Source of the DNA: a virus | Taxonomy: Duplodnaviria; Heunggongvirae; Uroviricota; Caudoviricetes | Direction: 5' to 3' (one strand) | Virus record (IMG/VR): IMGVR_UViG_3300031577_000046 | Length of the DNA: 9,002 nt | In this document: in pieces, positions 746-8,697 of the stretch | Layout: the number at the start of each line of letters is the position of its first letter | Numbering within the stretch: the stretch's first letter is position 1 | Position numbers and translations under genes: made by a program | Notes under the pieces: model-generated | Told to the model about the DNA's origin: nothing | Seen by the model: only the letters and a program-made list of their open reading frames with translations | The model's database searches: none

Positions 746-1240
746 ATGGATCGGGAGTTGAAAAATCTGACGCTGAATATCAGTCAACTGGCGGCACTGT
801 CAGGAGTACATCGCCAGACTGCTGCGGCAAGGCTGCAAAATCTACCCGTTGCAGGGGGGCATGAAAGCAACCTCAAGCTTTATCGGGTGGTTGATATTGT
901 GTCGGCATTTCTGGCATTACCACCGCCGGTTGCAGAAGGCGAAATGGACGCGCATGAGCGCAAAGCCTGGTATCAGTCTGAACGTGAGCGTCTTAAGTTC
1001 GAACAGGAAACGGCACAACTCATTCCGGCCAGTGATGTCAGACGGGAGTTTGCCATCTGGGCAAAAGCGGTCGTGCAGGTGCTGGAGACATTACCGGATA
1101 TTCTGGAACGCGACTGCGGTCTGCAGCCTGCCGCTGTGAGCCGTGTTCAGTCCATTATTGATGATCTGCGCGATCAGATAGCCCTGCGGGTGACCGAAGC
1201 AGGTGCGGATGATGAGGAGGAATTACAGCAGGAGGAGTAA
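746..1240 (+). CDS. nu1: Terminase small subunit, lambda Nu1 family (164 aa)
   Basis: ATG at 746 with GGAG at 737-740 (5-nt spacer). N-terminal HTH-like segment LNISQLAALSGVHRQTAAARLQ and overall resemblance to lambda gpNu1, acidic C-terminus. Sits immediately upstream of and overlapping (TAATG) the large terminase. Confidence 0.85.
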   Translation: MDRELKNLTLNISQLAALSGVHRQTAAARLQNLPVAGGHESNLKLYRVVDIVSAFLALPPPVAEGEMDAHERKAWYQSERERLKFEQETAQLIPASDVRREFAIWAKAVVQVLETLPDILERDCGLQPAAVSRVQSIIDDLRDQIALRVTEAGADDEEELQQEE

Positions 1241-3342
1241 TGCTGAATCAGGAAACCGCAAAGGCAGCACGAACCGATTCAGGTTATATCCTTCGCGCAC
1301 CGAGACGAATGCGGGTTGCTGATGCCGTCGCTCAGTATATGCGGGTACCCATGGGAGCCGGGAACTCAGTCCCGTGGGATCCGCTGGTGGCACCGTATGT
1401 TATTGAACCGATGAACTGTCTGGCCTCGCGTGAATACGACGCAGTGATATTTGTTGGCCCGGCACGAACCGGCAAGACTATCGGCCTGATTGACGGCTGG
1501 GTGATTTACAACGTGATTTGCGATCCTGCGGATATGCTGATCATTCAGATGACGGAGGAAAAAGCCCGCGAACACTCCAAAAAACGACTCGCCAGAACGT
1601 TTCGCGTCAGCCCGGAAGTGGTCAGTCGCCTGAGTCCGAACAAAAATGACAACAACGTTTATGACAGAACATTCCTTACTGGCAACTACCTGAAAATCGG
1701 CTGGCCGTCAGTCAATATCATGTCCTCATCAGATTATAAATGCGTGGCGCTGACGGATTATGATCGTTTCCCGGAAGATATTGATGGTGAGGGGGATGCC
1801 TTCTCTCTTGCCTCAAAACGTACCACCACATTTATGTCCAGTGGTATGACGCTGGTGGAGAGTTCCCCCGGCAGGGATGTGAAGGATGTGAAATGGCGAC
1901 GGACTTCACCACATGAGGCTCCACCAACCACGGGGATCCTGTCGCTCTATAATCGTGGCGATCGCCGTCGCTGGTACTGGCCCTGTCCACACTGTGGTGA
2001 GTATTTTCAGCCCTGCGGCGATGTGGTTGCTGGTTTCCGTGATATTGCCGATCCCGTGCTGGCAAGTGAGGCGGCTTATATTCAGTGTCCTTCCTGTTCC
2101 GGACGGATTATGCCTGAACAAAAACGTGAGCTGAACGGACGTGGGGTCTGGTTGCGGGATGGTGAATCCATCAATGCGGATGGCAGTCGTTATGGTGATC
2201 CCCGACGCTCACGTATTGCGTCATTCTGGATGGAGGGTCCGGCTGCTGCTTACCAGACACTCTCGCAACTCGTTTACAAACTGCTTACTGCAGAACAGGA
2301 ATACGAGACAACCGGAAGTGAAGAAACACTCAAGACGGTTATCAATACCGACTGGGGATTACCTTATCTTCCCCGCGCCAGCATGGAGCAACGAAAAAGT
2401 GAACTGCTTGAGCAGCGGGCAGAGCCAGTTCCTTCCCGCAGTGTGCCGGATGGCGTTAATTTCCTTGTGGCGACAGTGGATGTGCAGGCGGGACGTCATC
2501 GCCGTTTTGTGGTTCAGGTAACGGGCTATGGCAGCCGTGGCGAACGCTGGATTATTGATCGTTACAACATCACGCAGTCATTGCGCGGTGACAGCGACGG
2601 GGAGAGCCAGCGAATTGATCCGGCCAGCTATCCGGAAGACTGGGATGTCCTGCTGACGGATGTTTTTCATAAAAGCTGGCCGCTGGCCTCCGATCCTTCT
2701 CAACAAATGCGACTGATGGCAATGGCGGTGGACTCCGGTGGTGAAGACGGGGTCACTGATAATGCCTATAAATTCTGGCGTCGTTGCCGTCGTGATGGCC
2801 TTGGTAAACGTATTTACCTGTTTAAGGGCGACAGCATCCGGCGCGCAAAACTGATCACCCGTACATTCCCTGATAACACCGGACGAACGGGCCGACGGGC
2901 GCAGGCCGCAGGTGATGTGCCGCTCTGGCTTCTTCAGACGGATGCCCTGAAAGACCGGGTGAATAACGCGTTATGGCGTGACTCGCCAGGTCCCGGCTAT
3001 GTGCATTTCCCTGACTGGCTGGGGAGCTGGTTTTACGACGAACTGACGTATGAAGAGCGTAGCAGTGACGGAAAATGGAGTAAGCCGGGTCGCGGTGCCA
3101 ACGAAGCCTTTGACCTGATGGTGTATGCCGAGGCTCTGGTCATTCTGCATGGATACGAAAAGATCCGCTGGCCGGATGCACCGGAATGGGCGAGCCGGGA
3201 AACCTGGCTGGAGTGTGTCCCGGACAGTACCGAACCGTCACTCTCACCGGAACCGGTATCCACGCCTGTTAAAAAACAAAAACGGAAGAAAACAGTAACT
3301 GACGATGTTAACCCCTGGCTGACTTCCGGAGGATGGTTATGA
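1240..3342 (+). CDS. A: Terminase large subunit, lambda gpA family (700 aa)
   Basis: Walker-A-like VGPARTGKT at aa 72-80 (nt 1453-1479). Motifs CPHCGEYFQPCGD, WIIDRYNI and C-terminal GYVHFPDW...EAFDLMVYAEAL parallel lambda gpA (CPHCGEE, WLIDRQII, GAVHFP...EALDCFVYALAA). Start overlaps the Nu1-like stop. Confidence 0.95.
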   Translation: MLNQETAKAARTDSGYILRAPRRMRVADAVAQYMRVPMGAGNSVPWDPLVAPYVIEPMNCLASREYDAVIFVGPARTGKTIGLIDGWVIYNVICDPADMLIIQMTEEKAREHSKKRLARTFRVSPEVVSRLSPNKNDNNVYDRTFLTGNYLKIGWPSVNIMSSSDYKCVALTDYDRFPEDIDGEGDAFSLASKRTTTFMSSGMTLVESSPGRDVKDVKWRRTSPHEAPPTTGILSLYNRGDRRRWYWPCPHCGEYFQPCGDVVAGFRDIADPVLASEAAYIQCPSCSGRIMPEQKRELNGRGVWLRDGESINADGSRYGDPRRSRIASFWMEGPAAAYQTLSQLVYKLLTAEQEYETTGSEETLKTVINTDWGLPYLPRASMEQRKSELLEQRAEPVPSRSVPDGVNFLVATVDVQAGRHRRFVVQVTGYGSRGERWIIDRYNITQSLRGDSDGESQRIDPASYPEDWDVLLTDVFHKSWPLASDPSQQMRLMAMAVDSGGEDGVTDNAYKFWRRCRRDGLGKRIYLFKGDSIRRAKLITRTFPDNTGRTGRRAQAAGDVPLWLLQTDALKDRVNNALWRDSPGPGYVHFPDWLGSWFYDELTYEERSSDGKWSKPGRGANEAFDLMVYAEALVILHGYEKIRWPDAPEWASRETWLECVPDSTEPSLSPEPVSTPVKKQKRKKTVTDDVNPWLTSGGWL

Positions 3343-3551
3343 ACCAGAATGATATTGAAGCCATGATTCAGCGTTATACGGAAGCTGAAATGGCGGTGCT
3401 GGACGGAAAATCCGTCACCTTTAATGGTCAGCAGATGACCATGGAAAACTTATCTGAGATCCGACAGGGGCGGCAGGAGTGGGAGCGCCGCCTTGCGGCT
3501 CTGATTACACGACGACGGGGGCATCCCGGGTACCGGCTGGCGAGGTTCTGA
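3339..3551 (+). CDS. W: Head-tail joining protein, lambda gpW family (70 aa)
   Basis: Small protein between terminase and portal with a C-terminal RRRGHPG motif like lambda gpW (RRRGPAG). ATG 3339 overlaps the terminase TGA (ATGA, 3339-3342) and has GGAGG at 3328-3332 (6-nt spacer). The ATG at 3333 in the ORF track has no spacer to the SD. Confidence 0.85.
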   Translation: MNQNDIEAMIQRYTEAEMAVLDGKSVTFNGQQMTMENLSEIRQGRQEWERRLAALITRRRGHPGYRLARF

Positions 3552-5059
3552 TGGCAATTCTTGATGATGTGATTGGCGTTTTTTCTCCAGGATGGAAAGC
3601 GGCAAGGCTGCGTTCCCGTGCGGTGATCCAGGCTTATGAGGCCGTAAAAACGACGCGGACACACAAAGCCCGACGGGAGAACCGAACTGCCGACCAGTTA
3701 AGCCAGTACGGGGCCGTGTCGTTACGTGAGCAGGCCCGTTACCTTGATAACAACCACGATCTGGTTATTGGTGTATTTGACAAGCTGGAAGAACGGGTGG
3801 TGGGGAAAAACGGGATTATTGTCGAGCCACATCCGGTATTACGCAATGGGGCCATTGCCCGTGATCTGGCAGCGGAGATACGCACCCGATGGAGTGAATG
3901 GTCTGTCAGTCCGGAAGTCACCGGGCAGTTTACCCGTCCGATGCTGGAACGTCTGATGCTGCGTACCTGGCTGCGCGATGGTGAGGTGTTTGCCCAGATG
4001 GTTTCCGGGCGCATAAACAGCCTGACGCCTTCTGCCGGTGTTCATTTCTGGCTGGAGGCACTCGAGCCAGACTTTATTCCCATGATCAGTGATGAGAGCA
4101 ACAGGCTGAATCAGGGCGTGTTTGTTGATGACTGGGGGCGTCCCGAAAAATATCTGGTGTATAAAAGCCGTCCCGTATCCGGACGGCAGATGGAAACCAA
4201 AGAAGTGGATGCAGAGCGAATGCTGCATCTTAAATTTGTTCGCCGTCTGCACCAGATGCGCGGGACGTCTTTATTGTCCGGTGTACTGATCCGCCTCAGT
4301 GCCCTGAAAGAGTATGAAGATTCTGAGCTGATTGCAGCAAGGATCGCCGCTGCTCTGGGGATGTACATCCGGAAAGGCGACGGGCAGAGCTATGAACCGG
4401 ATGGTAATGGCAGCAAGGAGAATGAACGCGAGCTTACCATTCAGCCAGGCATTATTTACGACGATCTGAAACCCGGCGAAGAAATCGGAATGGTGAAGTC
4501 AGATCGCCCCAATCCTAACCTTGAAACTTTTCGTAATGGTCAGTTGCGTGCCGTGGCGGCGGGCAGTCGTCTGAGTTTTTCCAGTACGGCGCGCAACTAT
4601 AACGGCACTTACAGCGCCCAGCGTCAGGAGCTGGTTGAGTCTACTGATGGCTACCTGATCCTGCAGGACTGGTTTATTGGTGCCGTCACCCGCCCGATGT
4701 ACCGTGCCTGGCTGAAACAGGCTGTGGCATTCGGTGTTATCAGGCTACCCCGCGATCTTGACCGTTCTTCACTGTATACCGCGGTGTATTCCGGACCGGT
4801 GATGCCATGGATTGACCCTGTTAAGGAGGCTGAGGCCTGGAAAATTCAGATTCGTGGTGGAGCGGCGACAGAATCAGACTGGGTACGTGCAGGTGGTCGT
4901 AATCCGGATGATGTCAAACGTCGGCGCAAGGCCGAAATTGATGAAAACCGCAAGCTGGATCTGGTATTTGATACCGATCCGGCCAGTGATAAAGGAGGCA
5001 GCAGTGCCGCAACGAAACGACAGGATCCGCAGCACACCGACGACCAGTCCGAAGAATAA
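3551..5059 (+). CDS. B: Portal protein, lambda gpB family (502 aa)
   Basis: Large protein at the portal position between W and the protease/capsid gene. ATG 3551 overlaps the W stop (TGATG at 3549-3553); the upstream in-frame codons of the track ORF (from 3479) lie inside W. Family call is from size, synteny and a STAR(N/A)... motif, without a search. Confidence 0.85.
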   Translation: MAILDDVIGVFSPGWKAARLRSRAVIQAYEAVKTTRTHKARRENRTADQLSQYGAVSLREQARYLDNNHDLVIGVFDKLEERVVGKNGIIVEPHPVLRNGAIARDLAAEIRTRWSEWSVSPEVTGQFTRPMLERLMLRTWLRDGEVFAQMVSGRINSLTPSAGVHFWLEALEPDFIPMISDESNRLNQGVFVDDWGRPEKYLVYKSRPVSGRQMETKEVDAERMLHLKFVRRLHQMRGTSLLSGVLIRLSALKEYEDSELIAARIAAALGMYIRKGDGQSYEPDGNGSKENERELTIQPGIIYDDLKPGEEIGMVKSDRPNPNLETFRNGQLRAVAAGSRLSFSSTARNYNGTYSAQRQELVESTDGYLILQDWFIGAVTRPMYRAWLKQAVAFGVIRLPRDLDRSSLYTAVYSGPVMPWIDPVKEAEAWKIQIRGGAATESDWVRAGGRNPDDVKRRRKAEIDENRKLDLVFDTDPASDKGGSSAATKRQDPQHTDDQSEE

Positions 5060-5072
5060 TTCCTGGTTCAGG

Positions 5073-7031
5073 ATGCAGGCTGGTCACCAGAGTGACGCGG
5101 ATATTTATATTTATGACGAGATTGGTTTCTGGGGTGTTACGGCGAAGCAGTTTATCAGTGATCTGAATGCACTGGGCGATATCACCCACATTAATCTCCA
5201 TATCAATTCACCGGGTGGCGATGTCTTTGAAGGCATCGCCATTTTTAATGCGCTGAAAACACATAGTGCGTCCATTACCGTTTATGTCGACGGTGTGGCG
5301 GCATCAATGGCGTCGGTCATTGCGATGGTGGGAAACCCGGTCATTATGCCGGAAAACACCTTCATGATGATTCATAAACCATTTGGCTTTACGGGCGGTG
5401 ATGCGGAGGACATGCGCACCTATGCCGACCTGCTCGATAAAGTTGAGGCGGTTCTGTTACCCGCTTATGCACAGAAAACCGGGAAAACCACCGATGAAAT
5501 TGCTGCCATGCTGGCGGATGAGACCTGGATGTCCGGTGCCGAATGTCTGGCACATGGATTTGCTGATCAGGTGACGCCAGCCGTTAAGGCAATGGCATGT
5601 ATTCAGTCAAAACGTACAGAGGAATTTAAAAAGATGCCGGAATCCATTCGAAACATGATTACTCCGCCACGCAACAGTGCTCCACGCGTACAGGATGATG
5701 AACCTGCTGCCTCCCGGACACCAGTGCAGGCAGCAGCACCAGTGGTGGATGAAAACAGCATCCGTGTGCAGGTACTGGCAGAGCAAAAAGCGCGTGTAAA
5801 CGGTATTAATGATCTGTTTGCCATGTTTGGCGGGCGTTATCAGACGCTGCAGGCTCAGTGCCTTGCCGATCCTGAATGTTCGCTGGAGCAGGCCCGCGAA
5901 AAGCTGTTGAACGAGATGGGGCGCGAGTCCACGCCATCCAATAAAAATACCCAGGCTCATATTTATGCCGGGAACGGTAATTTTGTTGGGGACGGGATCC
6001 GCCAGGCGCTGATGTCGCGTGCCGGATTTGAAAAAACCGAACGTGATAATGTCTACAACGGAATGACCCTGCGTGAATATGCCCGTATGTCACTGACTGA
6101 ACGGGGTATTGTGGTTTCCAGTTATAACCCGATGCAGATGGTCGGTGCGGCGTTCACACACAGTACGTCTGACTTCGGTAATATTCTGCTGGATGTTGCG
6201 AACAAAGCCATTCTGCAGGGTTGGGAATATGCCCCTGAAACCTACGAACAGTGGACGCGGAAAGGTCAGTTGTCTGATTTTAAAATTGCCCATCGTGTGG
6301 GTATGGGGGGCTTCAGTGCTCTGCGTCAGGTGCGTGAAGGGGCGGAATATAAATACGTCACCACCGGAGATAAACAGGCCACTATTGCACTGGCGACCTA
6401 TGGCGAACTGTTCAGTATCACCCGTCAGGCCATTATCAACGATGATCTGAATATGCTGACCGATGTCCCGATGAAACTGGGTCGTGCGGCGAAATCCACT
6501 ATTGCCGATCTGGTTTATGCCATTCTGACGTCTAACCCGAAGATCTCCACAGATAATGTAAGCCTGTTCGATAAAGCGAAACATGCAAACGTACTGGAGA
6601 GCGCAGCAATGGACGTGGCATCGCTGGATAAAGCCCGCCAGTTGATGCGTGTTCAGAAAGAGGGTGAGCGTCATCTGAATATTCGTCCTGCGTTCGTACT
6701 GGTACCGACGGCGATGGAGTCTGTTGCTAACCAGGTCATTCGCTCCTCAAGTGTCAAGGGGGCTGACATTAACGCCGGTATTATTAACCCGGTGAAAGAT
6801 TTTGCGACCGTTATTGCAGAGCCTCGTCTTGATGATAACAGCCAGACCACCTTTTATCTGGCTGCGTCCAAAGGCTCCGATACGATTGAAGTGGCTTATC
6901 TCAACGGTGTGGATACGCCATATATTGATCAGATGGAGGGCTTCAGTGTGGATGGCGTGACAACTAAAGTGCGTATTGACGCCGGTGTTGCGCCAGTTGA
7001 TCACCGCGGTCTGGTGAAATGTACGGCGTAA
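5073..7031 (+). CDS. Tripartite head gene: ClpP-like (S14) prohead protease, scaffold-like linker and HK97-fold major capsid protein in one 652-aa ORF (Gifsy-2-type)
   Basis: ClpP catalytic motifs are present: GVAASMAS (Ser78, nt 5304-5306) and MMIHKPFG (His101, nt 5373-5375), matching E. coli ClpP AASMG / MIHQPLGG. A Pro/Ala-rich linker follows (~5655-5750), then a predicted helical segment, then ~350 aa of capsid-like sequence to the stop at 7029-7031. Start is ambiguous: ATG 5073 (weak SD, 14 nt after portal stop) or in-frame GTG 5004 with AAGGAGG at 4992-4998. Confidence 0.85.
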   Translation: MQAGHQSDADIYIYDEIGFWGVTAKQFISDLNALGDITHINLHINSPGGDVFEGIAIFNALKTHSASITVYVDGVAASMASVIAMVGNPVIMPENTFMMIHKPFGFTGGDAEDMRTYADLLDKVEAVLLPAYAQKTGKTTDEIAAMLADETWMSGAECLAHGFADQVTPAVKAMACIQSKRTEEFKKMPESIRNMITPPRNSAPRVQDDEPAASRTPVQAAAPVVDENSIRVQVLAEQKARVNGINDLFAMFGGRYQTLQAQCLADPECSLEQAREKLLNEMGRESTPSNKNTQAHIYAGNGNFVGDGIRQALMSRAGFEKTERDNVYNGMTLREYARMSLTERGIVVSSYNPMQMVGAAFTHSTSDFGNILLDVANKAILQGWEYAPETYEQWTRKGQLSDFKIAHRVGMGGFSALRQVREGAEYKYVTTGDKQATIALATYGELFSITRQAIINDDLNMLTDVPMKLGRAAKSTIADLVYAILTSNPKISTDNVSLFDKAKHANVLESAAMDVASLDKARQLMRVQKEGERHLNIRPAFVLVPTAMESVANQVIRSSSVKGADINAGIINPVKDFATVIAEPRLDDNSQTTFYLAASKGSDTIEVAYLNGVDTPYIDQMEGFSVDGVTTKVRIDAGVAPVDHRGLVKCTA

Positions 7032-7117: not shown

Positions 7118-7441
7118 ATGGCAAAGAATTTTGTAGAAGAAGGAAAAACGGTGGCGATTGTTGCCAGTGCAGCCATCAGCAGCGGAGATCTGGTGCAGGT
7201 GGGTGATGTTTTTGCGGTGGCGCTGACCGATATTCCACAGGGTGAAACAGGCGACGGCATGACCGAAGGTGTGTTTATGCTGCCTAAGCTGAAAACGGAT
7301 GACATGAAAACGGGTAATAAGGTCTATCTGAAGTCCGGAAAAGTTCAGCTGACTAACAGCGGCTCTGATCCGCTGGTCGGGGTTGTCTGGGCAGATGCCG
7401 GAACCAGTGCAGAAGAAGTGCCGGTAAAACTCAATGTCTGA
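7118..7441 (+). CDS. Small head protein, probable decoration/cement protein (DUF2190-like by recollection); not similar to lambda gpD (107 aa)
   Basis: ATG 7118 with GGAG at 7108-7111 (6-nt spacer). Gly/Val/Ala-rich sequence of the DUF2190 phage-protein type as I recall it. Sits directly after the capsid gene and before FII, where lambda has FI; function is inferred from position and composition. Confidence 0.55.
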   Translation: MAKNFVEEGKTVAIVASAAISSGDLVQVGDVFAVALTDIPQGETGDGMTEGVFMLPKLKTDDMKTGNKVYLKSGKVQLTNSGSDPLVGVVWADAGTSAEEVPVKLNV

Positions 7442-7709
7442 TCCCTTTTCCCGGCTGGCAGCGCGTATGGATGCGATCACGGTCAGAAAGATGGGAAAGA
7501 CAGCCTCGATTAATGATGTCGATATGACTGTGATCCCGGGAGAAACACTGGCAGAGCTGAATGCTCTGTCCGGACCGTCGGTCTCTCTGGTGGTGTTTTC
7601 TTCGGGATACCGCCCACGGCGCGGGGATCGCGTTGTTTATGACGGACAACAATGGACGGTCACACGGCATGAACGCTTTAACGGTAAACCAATGATCTTT
7701 ATTGAGTAA
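7434..7709 (+). CDS. FII: Head-tail joining protein, lambda gpFII family (91 aa)
   Basis: N-terminus MSDPFSRLAARMDAITVRKMGKTASI parallels lambda FII MADFDNLFDAAIARADETIRGYMGTSATI, and RRGDRVVYDGQQWTV parallels RRGDTLTIGEENFWV. Start overlaps the preceding stop by 8 nt (ATGTCTGA). Confidence 0.75.
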   Translation: MSDPFSRLAARMDAITVRKMGKTASINDVDMTVIPGETLAELNALSGPSVSLVVFSSGYRPRRGDRVVYDGQQWTVTRHERFNGKPMIFIE

Positions 7710-7720
7710 AGAGGTGTGGG

Positions 7721-8299
7721 ATGAAGGGGCTTGAGAACGCCATCCGCAATCTGAACAGCCTTGATACCCGTATGGTACCGCAGGCCAGCGCATGGACGAT
7801 AAACCGTGTGGCACAGAAAGCGGTCTCGGTTGCCACGCATCAGGTCGCGCAGAATACCGTGGCGGGAGATAACCAGGTGAAGGGGATCCCTTTTCGGATT
7901 GTAAAAGAACGTGTCCGGGTACTGAAAGCCACCCCGACAGGAAAAATGTATGCTCGAATTCGCATTAACCGGGGCAACCTGCCCGCCATTAAGCTGGGGA
8001 CGGCCCGGGTCAGACTGGCCCGGCGTGGTGGAAAACTGCGGTACCGTGGCAGTGTGCTGAAGGTGGGTAAATATCTTTTCCGGGATGCGTTTATTCAACA
8101 ACTGGCGAATGGTCGCTGGCATGTGATGCGGCGTATTGACGGCAAAAATCGTTACCCCATTGATGTGGTGAACATCCCGATGGCCGGACCGCTGACACAG
8201 GCATTTGAAGATGCCCGCGACCGCATCATTGCTGCGGAGATGCCGAAACAGCTGGGGTATGCACTGAAACAACAACTGAGGTTATGGCTGACCCGATGA
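7721..8299 (+). CDS. Z: Tail completion protein, lambda gpZ family (192 aa)
   Basis: Same length as lambda gpZ, with near-identical blocks: FIQQLANGRWHVMRRIDGKNRYPIDVVNIPMAGPLTQAF versus lambda FIQQLKNGRWHVMQRVAGKNRYPIDVVKIPMAVPLTTAF (from memory). GAGG at 7711-7714, 6-nt spacer. Confidence 0.9.
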   Translation: MKGLENAIRNLNSLDTRMVPQASAWTINRVAQKAVSVATHQVAQNTVAGDNQVKGIPFRIVKERVRVLKATPTGKMYARIRINRGNLPAIKLGTARVRLARRGGKLRYRGSVLKVGKYLFRDAFIQQLANGRWHVMRRIDGKNRYPIDVVNIPMAGPLTQAFEDARDRIIAAEMPKQLGYALKQQLRLWLTR

Positions 8300-8697
8300 A
8301 CCGACATACACAAATCCGCCAGGTCGTACTGGCACGCCTTCGGGAACAGTGTGGAGACGGCGCCACGTTTTTTGACGGGCTTCCGGCATTTGTTGATGCG
8401 CAGGAACTGCCCGCCGTGGCGGTGTGGCTGAGTGATGCACAGTACACCGGAAAAATGACGGATGAAGATGACTGGCAGGCTGTTCTGCATATTGCCGTCT
8501 TCATCCGGGCACAGGCACCGGATTCAGAGCTGGATATGTGGATGGAGAGCACCATTGTCCCGGCCCTGAATGATATACCGGCACTTTCCGGACTCATCGA
8601 CACCCTGAGCCCACTCGGTTTTAACTATCAACGTGATAATGAGATGGCCACCTGGGCGATGGCGGAAATCACGTACCAGATCACGTACACGAATTAA
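8296..8697 (+). CDS. U: Tail terminator protein, lambda gpU family (133 aa)
   Basis: [12 protein letters not shown]...GATFFDG...[14 protein letters not shown]...[11 protein letters not shown]...DIPALSGLI closely parallels lambda gpU (MKHTELRAAVL...GATFFDG...PAVAVYLTGAEYTG...PDSELDAWMES). ATG 8296 overlaps the Z stop (ATGA, 8296-8299). The in-frame ATG at 8284 is possible but the homolog alignment favours 8296. Confidence 0.9.

Follow-up and report, generated by a model that had tools for sequence, protein, structure and literature searches.

The head gene at positions 5073 to 7031 (plus strand) of the analyzed DNA, a viral stretch of 9,002 nucleotides referred to here as the window, is an already described Gifsy-2-type fusion of a ClpP-like protease, a putative scaffold, and a major capsid protein, and a very common one among E. 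coli prophages. Sequence comparison of an in-frame ATG at 5634 and its upstream nucleotides suggests that this "tripartite" gene may be a nested two-product gene, with a scaffold-capsid protein as the main building block and a minority of full-length chains that deliver the protease. We regard the two-product reading as evenly poised. Held jointly with it, and with considerably more confidence, is the view that the gene is orthologous to the tripartite capsid gene of Gifsy-2 and serves as head gene in a lambdoid cdtI/mEp460-like E. coli prophage.

Identity, neighbors, and start codon of the fusion gene

Bases 5073 to 7031 (+) form a single open frame of 652 aa that begins at ATG 5073 and stops at 7029 to 7031. 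These coordinates are the same as those annotated in phage cdtI, and residue numbers throughout are counted from ATG 5073. In an NCBIfam model search the product scored 979.8 bits (cutoff 475) with NF045540 ("ClpP-like prohead protease/major capsid protein fusion"), residues 9 to 651 being aligned to model positions 2 to 651 of 652. PHROG 133 was matched over the full length. The DNA is 98% identical to phages cdtI, mEp460, and phi458, and the NF045540 members (cdtI, mEp460, phi458, Tritos, Ayreon, and E. coli prophages) show 97.7 to 98.4% DNA identity over the whole gene. There is essentially no difference between the genes of these members and the window gene, which is another copy. Of 5426 complete E. 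coli genomes, 2125 (~39%) carry the gene, where its annotation reads [quoted passage not shown]. As a member of a curated, experimentally described family, the gene is in itself ordinary. Public annotations of NF045540 members disagree on both the start codon and the name, which is given as protease, Nu3, or major capsid protein.

The preliminary description had read the 652-aa ORF as a ClpP-like domain, a Pro/Ala-rich linker, and a capsid domain in one chain, and had classified it as a Gifsy-2-type tripartite head gene. The domain layout is borne out by the frame and by Pfam matches that far exceed what chance would give. The classification agrees with the NF045540 score (980 bits), with 69% full-length identity to the Gifsy-2 protein, and with the ClpP fold in the predicted structure. 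The score to NF045541 (scaf_prot_MCP2) fell below the cutoff (399.7 against 525 bits) and only residues 197 to 649 matched, so the window protein does not belong to that family.

The Gifsy-2 gene (STM1034.3n.Gifsy2) has the same order of ClpP-like protease, scaffold-like domain, and HK97-type capsid, and the same neighbors, with the portal gene upstream and the decoration-protein gene downstream. It shares Met188, the GAGGA upstream of it, Ser78, His101, and Glu150 with the window gene. Gifsy-2 is a Salmonella phage, of a different host and lineage from the E. coli cdtI/mEp460-like prophage in the window. A shorter linker is a further difference between the two genes, and Gifsy-2 has Ile at the position of ATG 5073 and starts upstream of it. 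The Gifsy-2 precursor is reportedly cleaved to a mature capsid protein that forms a T=7 shell with decoration trimers; to our knowledge, such processing and architecture have been reported for Gifsy-2 only.

A lambda-family portal gene lies directly upstream at 3551 to 5059 (+) (Pfam Phage_portal_2, E = 1.6e-81; synteny with phage cdtI and Gifsy-2) and shares 56 nt with the likely beginning of the head gene. The gene for a head decoration (cement) protein follows directly downstream at 7118 to 7441 (+) (Pfam Phage_cement_2, E = 1.4e-20; "head decoration" in phage cdtI). By Pfam, the order is terminase, portal, fusion gene, cement protein, gpZ, and gpU, the same as in phage cdtI and Gifsy-2. 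A search of the window for the lambda-type cos sequence GGGCGGCGACCT gave only matches with three mismatches, fewer than expected by chance.

The start first reported, ATG 5073, probably lies 69 nt downstream of the true one. The reading frame is open upstream as far as 4812, and a Shine-Dalgarno sequence, AAAGGAGG, is located at 4991 to 4998 (+), within the portal gene at its 3' end. It was scored as AGGAGG, and GTG 5004 sits 5 nt behind it. The equivalent of GTG 5004 is the RefSeq/PGAP start in a 98% identical prophage. In the homologues that have the aligned column, 52 of 63 carry a start codon there (32 GTG, 18 ATG, and 2 TTG), and motifs like AAAGGAGG are conserved upstream of it. Between 5004 and 5073 an SW[FY] motif is kept in all 76 homologues, whereas the codon aligned with ATG 5073 is a non-start codon, mostly Ile, in 24 of the 76. 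The true start is most likely GTG 5004, and the most likely full CDS is 5004 to 7031 (+), encoding a 675-aa, 73.8-kDa protease-scaffold-capsid precursor. The comparative evidence favors the upstream GTG among the conflicting start annotations of this prophage gene.

Domains of the precursor

The ClpP-like prohead protease domain covers residues 9 to 168 (5097 to 5576, +). It was matched by NCBIfam Clp_rel_HeadMat (residues 9 to 167, 217 bits), by Pfam CLP_protease (residues 23 to 168, E = 1.7e-36), and by the sequences of solved ClpP chains (E = 2e-16). A structure prediction of the N-terminal part had been proposed as a check, and it recovered a ClpP fold: a Foldseek search with the AlphaFold model gave a ClpP match with E of about 1e-10 and a TM-score of 0.65 to 0.73. 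Models of ClpP (S14) fit the protease far better than do those of the SppA/S49 type. The ClpP motifs noted earlier as intact (Ser in AASMAS, His in MIHKP) were located at Ser78 and His101, both aligned to the ClpP active site. Ser78 (codon 5304 to 5306, +) lies in AASMAS at residues 76 to 81, aligns with the active-site Ser in the ClpP AASM motif, and is invariant in 30 family members. His101 (codon 5373 to 5375, +) lies in MIHKP at residues 99 to 103, aligns with the His of the ClpP MIHQP motif, and is also invariant. Glu150 (codon 5520 to 5522, +) takes the place of the catalytic Asp of ClpP: all three ClpP alignments shown place "adEtwms" opposite "rDnwms", "rDyyls", and "rDyfms". In the family alignment E150, at the position of ClpP Asp171, is invariant and the adjacent D149 is not. 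By alignment, the third triad position is Glu150 and not Asp. The protein has a ClpP-like fold but it is not a cellular ATP-dependent ClpP (MEROPS S14), because the triad Asp is replaced by Glu150 and the scores are below the ClpP cutoffs (TIGR00493, 60.6 against 308.6 bits, and all other ClpP models far under cutoff).

A Pro/Ala-rich linker at residues 196 to 226 (5658 to 5750, +; 39% Pro+Ala, pLDDT below 50) varies in length and sequence among homologues. It is followed by a central scaffold-like region (5751 to 6134, +) with predicted helices between residues 227 and 285 and then a highly conserved segment at 293 to 354. The helices 227 to 250, 257 to 265, and 271 to 285 were predicted with pLDDT of 69 to 83, and the family alignment has many invariant residues within 301 to 356. 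We infer a scaffold role for this region from the analogous delta domain of HK97 and from the Gifsy-2 description. The major capsid protein domain, of the Mu gpT/HK97-fold type, occupies residues 355 to 649 (6135 to 7019, +). Pfam Phage_capsid_4 matched these residues with E = 1.1e-54 and Mu-like_gpT matched with E = 3.7e-8. The family profile also matched solved capsid proteins with a Mu-gpT domain (8rkx/8rkc, E = 6e-12; 9jod, 7e-10). The profile matches thus point to an HK97 fold in the C-terminal part. An AlphaFold2 model from the single sequence had a mean pLDDT of 38.7 and was unusable. A model from an alignment of 45 sequences had a mean pLDDT of 50; its ClpP domain and scaffold helices were usable, and its capsid part was below 50 and unusable.

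A candidate internal start at the protease/scaffold boundary

Met188 is encoded by an in-frame ATG at 5634 to 5636 (+), and a Shine-Dalgarno-like GAGGA at 5619 to 5623 (+) precedes this ATG by 10 nt. Translation from this candidate start would give a protease-free scaffold-capsid protein of 465 aa and 50.9 kDa. The ATG is present at the protease/scaffold boundary in all 76 homologues (53 to 99% identity) and is never replaced by a Leu or Ile codon. Codon 183, which forms part of the GAGGA motif, is GAG in 60 homologues, CAG in 10, AAG in five, and GGA in one; GAA, CAA, and AAA never occur. For comparison, the GAG fraction in nineteen other Glu-rich columns is 0.16 to 0.57. Since codon 183 is always xAG or GGA, the AGGA motif survives changes of the amino acid among E, Q, K, and G. 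Among 422 conserved codon columns, synonymous variation is absent only at K180 and E183. Both are located within 24 nt upstream of ATG 5634, and codon 180 is invariantly AAA. The predicted duplex with the anti-Shine-Dalgarno sequence is -5.5 kcal/mol or stronger in every homologue. Of the conserved stretches of the gene, the one around ATG 5634 is predicted to have the least mRNA structure (mean z +1.78, positive in 76 of 76), and the 16 columns ranked highest for low mRNA structure all fall within 183 to 200. Pro189 is also invariant and its third codon position varies freely, so that part of the local conservation is at the protein level, for example in a docking or cleavage motif.

Met114 was considered as an alternative internal start and served as a control. 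Its Shine-Dalgarno-like upstream sequence comes from Gly-Gly-Asp codons whose third positions vary freely, and it lies inside the protease fold; it was judged to be incidental. Shine-Dalgarno-like sequences within genes can come from amino-acid constraints, as at Met114. In a stand-alone protease of a Vibrio phage, the position of Met188 is occupied by Ala and the Glu-Glu is also absent. The separate capsid gene of Vibrio phages PhiPS02/K319 was examined as a natural "split" version of the fusion. This capsid is unrelated at the BLAST level and is uninformative on the boundary.

A second fusion family carries the same arrangement. The NF045541 (MCP2) proteins of Pseudomonas phages (LPPA33; possibly MD8 gp5, PMC8508860) have homologous scaffold and capsid parts, with 400 bits over residues 197 to 649 and about 27% overall identity to the window protein, and they are encoded by a single fused gene after the portal gene, as in the window. 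A Pfam search that admitted E-values up to 1 found no ClpP match in their N-terminal domain. At their own protease/scaffold junction, 60 distinct MCP2 sequences have an invariant GAGGA followed by 7 nt and ATG; the sequences in this set are 74 to 83% identical, so that the codon invariance weighs less here. The GAGGA and ATG solution appears in two fusion families, one ClpP-like and one without a detectable ClpP domain.

Nested genes of the lambda C/Nu3 and Mu I/Z type make their shorter product from an in-frame internal start. In the window gene, a candidate internal in-frame start codon and conserved sequence signals for ribosome binding are likewise located at the protease/scaffold boundary. 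It is suggested by the sequence that a start at 5634 would yield a nested 465-aa scaffold-capsid product in the manner of lambda C/Nu3. In the literature searched, the original Gifsy-2 paper excepted, no description of an internal start or of a fused-gene mechanism was found.

One product or two

Lambda C/Nu3/E and Mu I/Z/T resemble the window gene in that a clan-SK-type serine protease is in the same frame as the scaffold. The window shares a lambda-family portal, a gpA-type terminase, and a decoration protein with lambda, and its capsid domain is Mu gpT-like. In lambda and Mu, however, the capsid protein is encoded by a separate gene, whereas the window gene has no stop between scaffold and capsid, so that the nested product would be a scaffold-capsid fusion. 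HK97 gp5 likewise has a scaffold-like N-terminal extension, the delta domain, fused to an HK97-fold capsid protein, and its removal by the phage protease is presumed here. The 465-aa internal product proposed here would correspond directly to gp5. The HK97 gp4 protease is encoded by a separate gene and has a different (assemblin-like) fold. HK97 has chainmail crosslinks and no decoration protein; unlike in HK97, a cement-protein gene follows the fusion gene in the window.

With two products, the primary translation products would be the 675-aa precursor from GTG 5004 and, in the lambda C/Nu3 or Mu I/Z manner, the 465-aa scaffold-capsid protein from ATG 5634. Both would co-assemble via the capsid domain, so that the protease carried into the procapsid would be sub-stoichiometric. 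By cutting away itself and the scaffold, the protease would leave a mature capsid protein of roughly 300 to 360 aa; expansion of the shell and binding of the decoration protein would follow. We infer that the internal start is used, and likewise the ratio of the two products, the sites of cleavage, and the route of assembly, which is modeled on what is reported for Gifsy-2 and on HK97 and lambda precedents. It had been argued that the fusion forces 1:1 synthesis of protease and capsid. This is doubtful in view of the Met188 ATG in 76 of 76 homologues, the AGGA conserved at the nucleotide level, and the least-structured mRNA at this site. Such an internal-start signature would mean that the amounts of protease and capsid are uncoupled, as in lambda C/Nu3.

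The main alternative is that a single 652/675-aa polypeptide is the only product, each subunit having its own protease and scaffold in strict 1:1 and the head maturing by autoproteolysis of about 415 identical precursors. Met188 and the upstream nucleotides would in that case have another purpose, for instance as a protein motif, as a cleavage site, or in pausing translation. The frame is uninterrupted, with no stop between domains, in the window and all 76 homologues; Pro189 is conserved at the protein level; Shine-Dalgarno-like motifs can be incidental, as the Met114 control indicates; and the Gifsy-2 abstract is said to speak of a single composite gene. All of these agree with a sole full-length product. 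We nevertheless consider it unlikely, because it does not account for the selection on nucleotides at codons 180 and 183, for a Met188 that never changes to Leu or Ile in 76 homologues and is absent from the stand-alone protease homologue, for the low mRNA structure conserved precisely at this site, or for the same signal in the MCP2 family, which has no detectable ClpP domain.

It is far less probable that the Shine-Dalgarno-like element and the T-AAA-AAG at 5627 to 5633 constitute a dnaX-like programmed -1 frameshift site that ends a stand-alone protease. The window does have GAGGA and then TTT AAA AAG, resembling the dnaX Shine-Dalgarno-like element and A-AAA-AAG. However, the base preceding AAA-AAG is T and not A, and codons 186 and 187 (Lys-Lys) vary widely in the homologues (EK, DA, SS, EH, TN, and others) while the ATG is conserved. 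The frameshift was rejected on the lack of conservation of the Lys-Lys codons. Least credible of all, and hardly to be entertained, is an artefactual long ORF, whether from separate genes joined by faulty sequencing or assembly or by a frameshift of recent date (the outcome that the preliminary description would have taken as refuting) or from a decaying pseudogene in a defective prophage: nothing was found in its favor, and it is refuted by 1972 complete E. coli genomes in which the gene is uninterrupted over 80% or more of the query (DNA search), by coverage of at least 80% in 27 sequenced phages by DNA and in 80 phage records by protein search, by a frame open across the entire gene in 73 of 73 full-length loci from other species (80 loci were fetched and the 73 with a full-length match were used), by about 250 invariant positions in addition to the catalytic Ser and His, and by the intact flanking head and tail genes.

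The tripartite design poses an obvious puzzle, namely how a capsid of ~415 subunits escapes being loaded with 415 proteases and, by our own estimate, roughly 16 MDa of internal cargo. If the internal start of the two-product reading is used, this puzzle would be resolved. It would also give a simple and testable rule for setting the protease dose in a gene that encodes protease, scaffold, and capsid in a single frame. For studies of protease encapsidation the gene would be convenient, since the capsid protein itself would serve as the targeting signal.

The head gene, its start codon and its neighbors

The head gene matches NF045540 (NCBIfam, [quoted passage not shown], the MCP1 family) end to end with 979.8 bits against a cutoff of 475. 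An end-to-end match to PHROG 133 was also found. At the DNA level it is 97.7 to 98.4% identical to phages phi458, mEp460, cdtI, Tritos, and Ayreon. A DNA search gave matches in 2125 of 5426 complete E. coli genomes, 1972 of them with copies spanning at least 80% of the query; the E. coli copies listed carry the NF045540 family name in RefSeq. The Gifsy-2 gene STM1034.3n shows 69% aa sequence identity to the head protein over the whole length. From the family, DNA, genome-count and Gifsy-2 matches it was concluded that this is an already known and very common kind of gene, and its preliminary description as a Gifsy-2-type tripartite gene was correct. The arrangement is attributed to Gifsy-2 (Effantin et al., 2010, as cited by PMC12315714 and PMC8538268), and Pseudomonas phage MD8 has an analogous single gene (PMC8508860).

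Annotation of the same gene is inconsistent across databases. Its names include "putative protease", "head-tail preconnector protein Nu3", "Major head protein", "head maturation protease" and "Clp protease ClpP", and the annotated starts give lengths of 648 to 707 aa. Copies of the enterobacterial-type gene are also found in metagenome-assembled genomes labeled as Bacillota (L006, 99% identity to the window), Geobacteraceae (L011, 74%) and Phyllobacterium (L080, 54%). Mis-binning of prophage contigs is the probable reason, and the labels are unlikely to show true hosts.

The gene was first reported as running from ATG 5073 to a stop at 7029–7031 on the plus strand (652 aa); the true start probably lies 69 nt further upstream. 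The reading frame is open upstream as far as 4812. GTG 5004 lies 5 nt downstream of AAAGGAGG, and ATG 5073 has only a directly abutting CAGG. We fetched 80 loci from genomes of other species (53 to 99% identity to the window) and aligned 73 full-length loci with the window, Gifsy-2 and Providencia phage PSTCR8lys (n = 76). A SW[FY]x[MI] motif encoded between 5004 and 5073 is kept in 76/76. In 24/76, including sequences from Gifsy-2, Pasteurellaceae, Pseudomonas and Shewanella, the position of ATG 5073 holds a non-start codon, mostly for Ile, and therefore translation there must begin upstream. The 5004 column, present in 63 sequences, contains GTG (32), ATG (18) or TTG (2), and AAAGGAGG-like motifs precede this start column in homologs. 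PGAP annotation also starts at the position matching 5004. The head gene is most likely 5004–7031 (675 aa, 73.8 kDa), which creates a 56-nt overlap in a different frame with the 3' end of the portal gene (5004–5059). In a near-identical E. coli prophage the portal ORF stops 33 nt earlier; the portal C-terminus therefore varies between close relatives.

The plus strand of the window carries a lambdoid head-gene block of typical kind, with neighbors assigned by Pfam. A DUF1441 small-terminase-like gene (746–1240), a gpA-type large terminase (1240–3342), a small ORF in the gpW position (3333–3551) and a lambda-family portal (3551–5059) precede the head gene. A decoration protein (Phage_cement_2, 7118–7441), a PF13856 "Gifsy-2" family protein (7434–7709), gpZ (7721–8299) and gpU (8284–8697) follow it. 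Pfam describes PF13856 as "ATP-binding sugar transporter from pro-phage" and RefSeq names a homolog "DNA breaking-rejoining protein". The position of the gene, 3' of the decoration gene, suggests a head-completion or connector protein, and so the Pfam description looks misleading. An apparent HNH endonuclease gene remnant is found 5' of the terminase genes (228–426), and the 98% identical E. coli prophage has a truncated HNH endonuclease pseudogene annotated at the matching place. A lambda-type cos sequence was looked for in the window and not found. The minus strand of 1–63 encodes a lipoprotein N-terminus (MKKMLFSAALAMLITGCAQQT) with a lipobox, which we take to resemble the lambda Bor lipoprotein; the gene continues beyond the window edge.

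Protease and capsid domains

Residues are numbered from ATG 5073. The 652-aa ORF with both motifs and both domains was confirmed by its coordinates, by AASMAS at residues 76–81 and MIHKP at residues 99–103, and by Pfam matches to CLP_protease (residues 23–168, E = 1.7e-36) and Phage_capsid_4 (residues 355–649, E = 1.1e-54). Pro and Ala make up 39% of residues 196–226, where length and sequence differ among homologs. A single-sequence AlphaFold2 model was unusable. A 45-sequence alignment allowed the ClpP part to be modeled at pLDDT of about 70 to 78 and three helices (residues 227–285) at 69 to 83. Foldseek of this model against PDB found ClpP chains (E about 1e-10, target-normalized TM-score 0.65 to 0.73), and solved ClpPs were matched by sequence (E = 2e-16); the ClpP fold is supported by both. 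The capsid part was not modeled (pLDDT < 50), and here the HK97-type fold proposed earlier is supported by sequence profiles: a 51-sequence profile matched the solved Mu-gpT-domain capsid proteins 8rkx/8rkc (E = 6e-12) and 9jod (E = 7e-10).

The ClpP catalytic motifs had been called intact. This holds for Ser78 and His101, which align with the active-site Ser and His of ClpP and do not vary among 30 family members. In all three printed alignments the Asp position is occupied by Glu150, which is invariant across the family; the neighboring Asp149 varies (A/G/E/K-D/E/Q). The alignments point to a Ser-His-Glu triad for this prohead protease clade, and the triad is best written in this way. The head protein scores far under every cellular ClpP cutoff; it is therefore ClpP-like in fold without being a ClpP.

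A candidate internal start at ATG 5634

Among in-frame start codons with a Shine-Dalgarno (SD) motif, a scan found a single candidate that sits at a domain boundary: ATG 5634 (Met188, context SKRTEEFKK-M-PES). Met188 is ATG in 76/76 homologs, and AGGA is always present 11 to 14 nt upstream (with a few-nt shift in three sequences). Codon 183 is GAG in 60, CAG in 10, AAG in 5 and GGA in 1 (amino acid E/Q/K/G); GAA, CAA and AAA do not occur there among the 76. Across nineteen further Glu-rich columns in these genes, the GAG fraction is 0.16 to 0.57. Synonymous variation is absent in just two of 422 conserved codon columns, K180 (AAA 68/68) and E183 (GAG 60/60), both within 24 nt upstream of ATG 5634; the next-lowest column has a normalized entropy of 0.37. 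An anti-SD duplex of -5.5 kcal/mol or stronger is possible upstream in every homolog. The mRNA from -30 to +20 shows less structure than the average for the gene in 76/76 (mean z +1.78), and codons 183–200 contain all 16 of the alignment columns that rank as least structured over the whole gene. At the control Met114, the SD-like upstream stretch comes from Gly-Gly-Asp codons with freely variable third positions. In the stand-alone protease of Vibrio phage K319 (47% identical), Ala stands in place of Met188 and Gly-Arg in place of Glu-Glu. The adjoining Pro189 is invariant with a free third position, and thus some protein-level constraint acts on this site too.

Combined, these sequence signals are what a functional internal translation start would be expected to show, and we consider it rather probable that ATG 5634 is used. 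The earlier claim of 1:1 synthesis, with autoproteolysis of identical subunits, is not supported as stated given these signals. T-AAA-AAG at 5627–5633, 3' of the SD-like GAGGA, resembles the dnaX frameshift cassette; the likeness is probably a coincidence because the Lys-Lys codons are not kept in homologs. No mention of an internal start was found in the searchable literature, a search that Effantin et al. (2010) lay outside.

Related systems and proposed assembly

The MCP2 fusion family (NF045541; e.g., L005:1907–3895 and L097–L165, Pseudomonas-type phage contigs) may carry a different protease, since Pfam does not match its N-terminal domain to ClpP. At the protease/scaffold junction, immediately ahead of the helical scaffold region, it has a GAGGA + 7 nt + ATG (Met213) that is invariant across 60 distinct nucleotide sequences. 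The signal hints at a nested scaffold-capsid product arising in parallel in this family; as evidence for a start at ATG 5634 it has less weight, the MCP2 set being less diverged.

If used, ATG 5634 would give a 465-aa, 50.9-kDa scaffold-capsid protein without protease, an analog of HK97 gp5. Its counterparts would be lambda Nu3, nested within C, and Mu Z, nested within I. Full-length precursor and internal product would co-assemble around the portal via the common capsid domain, with the helical central region (residues 227–354) as internal scaffold. Full-length chains, in the minority, would carry the Ser78/His101/Glu150 protease inside, which would cut away itself and the scaffold. By homology with the Mu gpT proteins of ~300 aa, the mature capsid protein would start somewhere in residues 290–360 (about 32 to 39 kDa). 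Shell expansion would follow, and then binding of the cement protein encoded at 7118–7441. Gifsy-2 reportedly has T=7 geometry and gpD-like decoration. With lambda and Mu as precedents, a phage-assembly specialist would regard the internal start as plausible, not as a surprise, and its signal is a modest, testable addition to a known gene.
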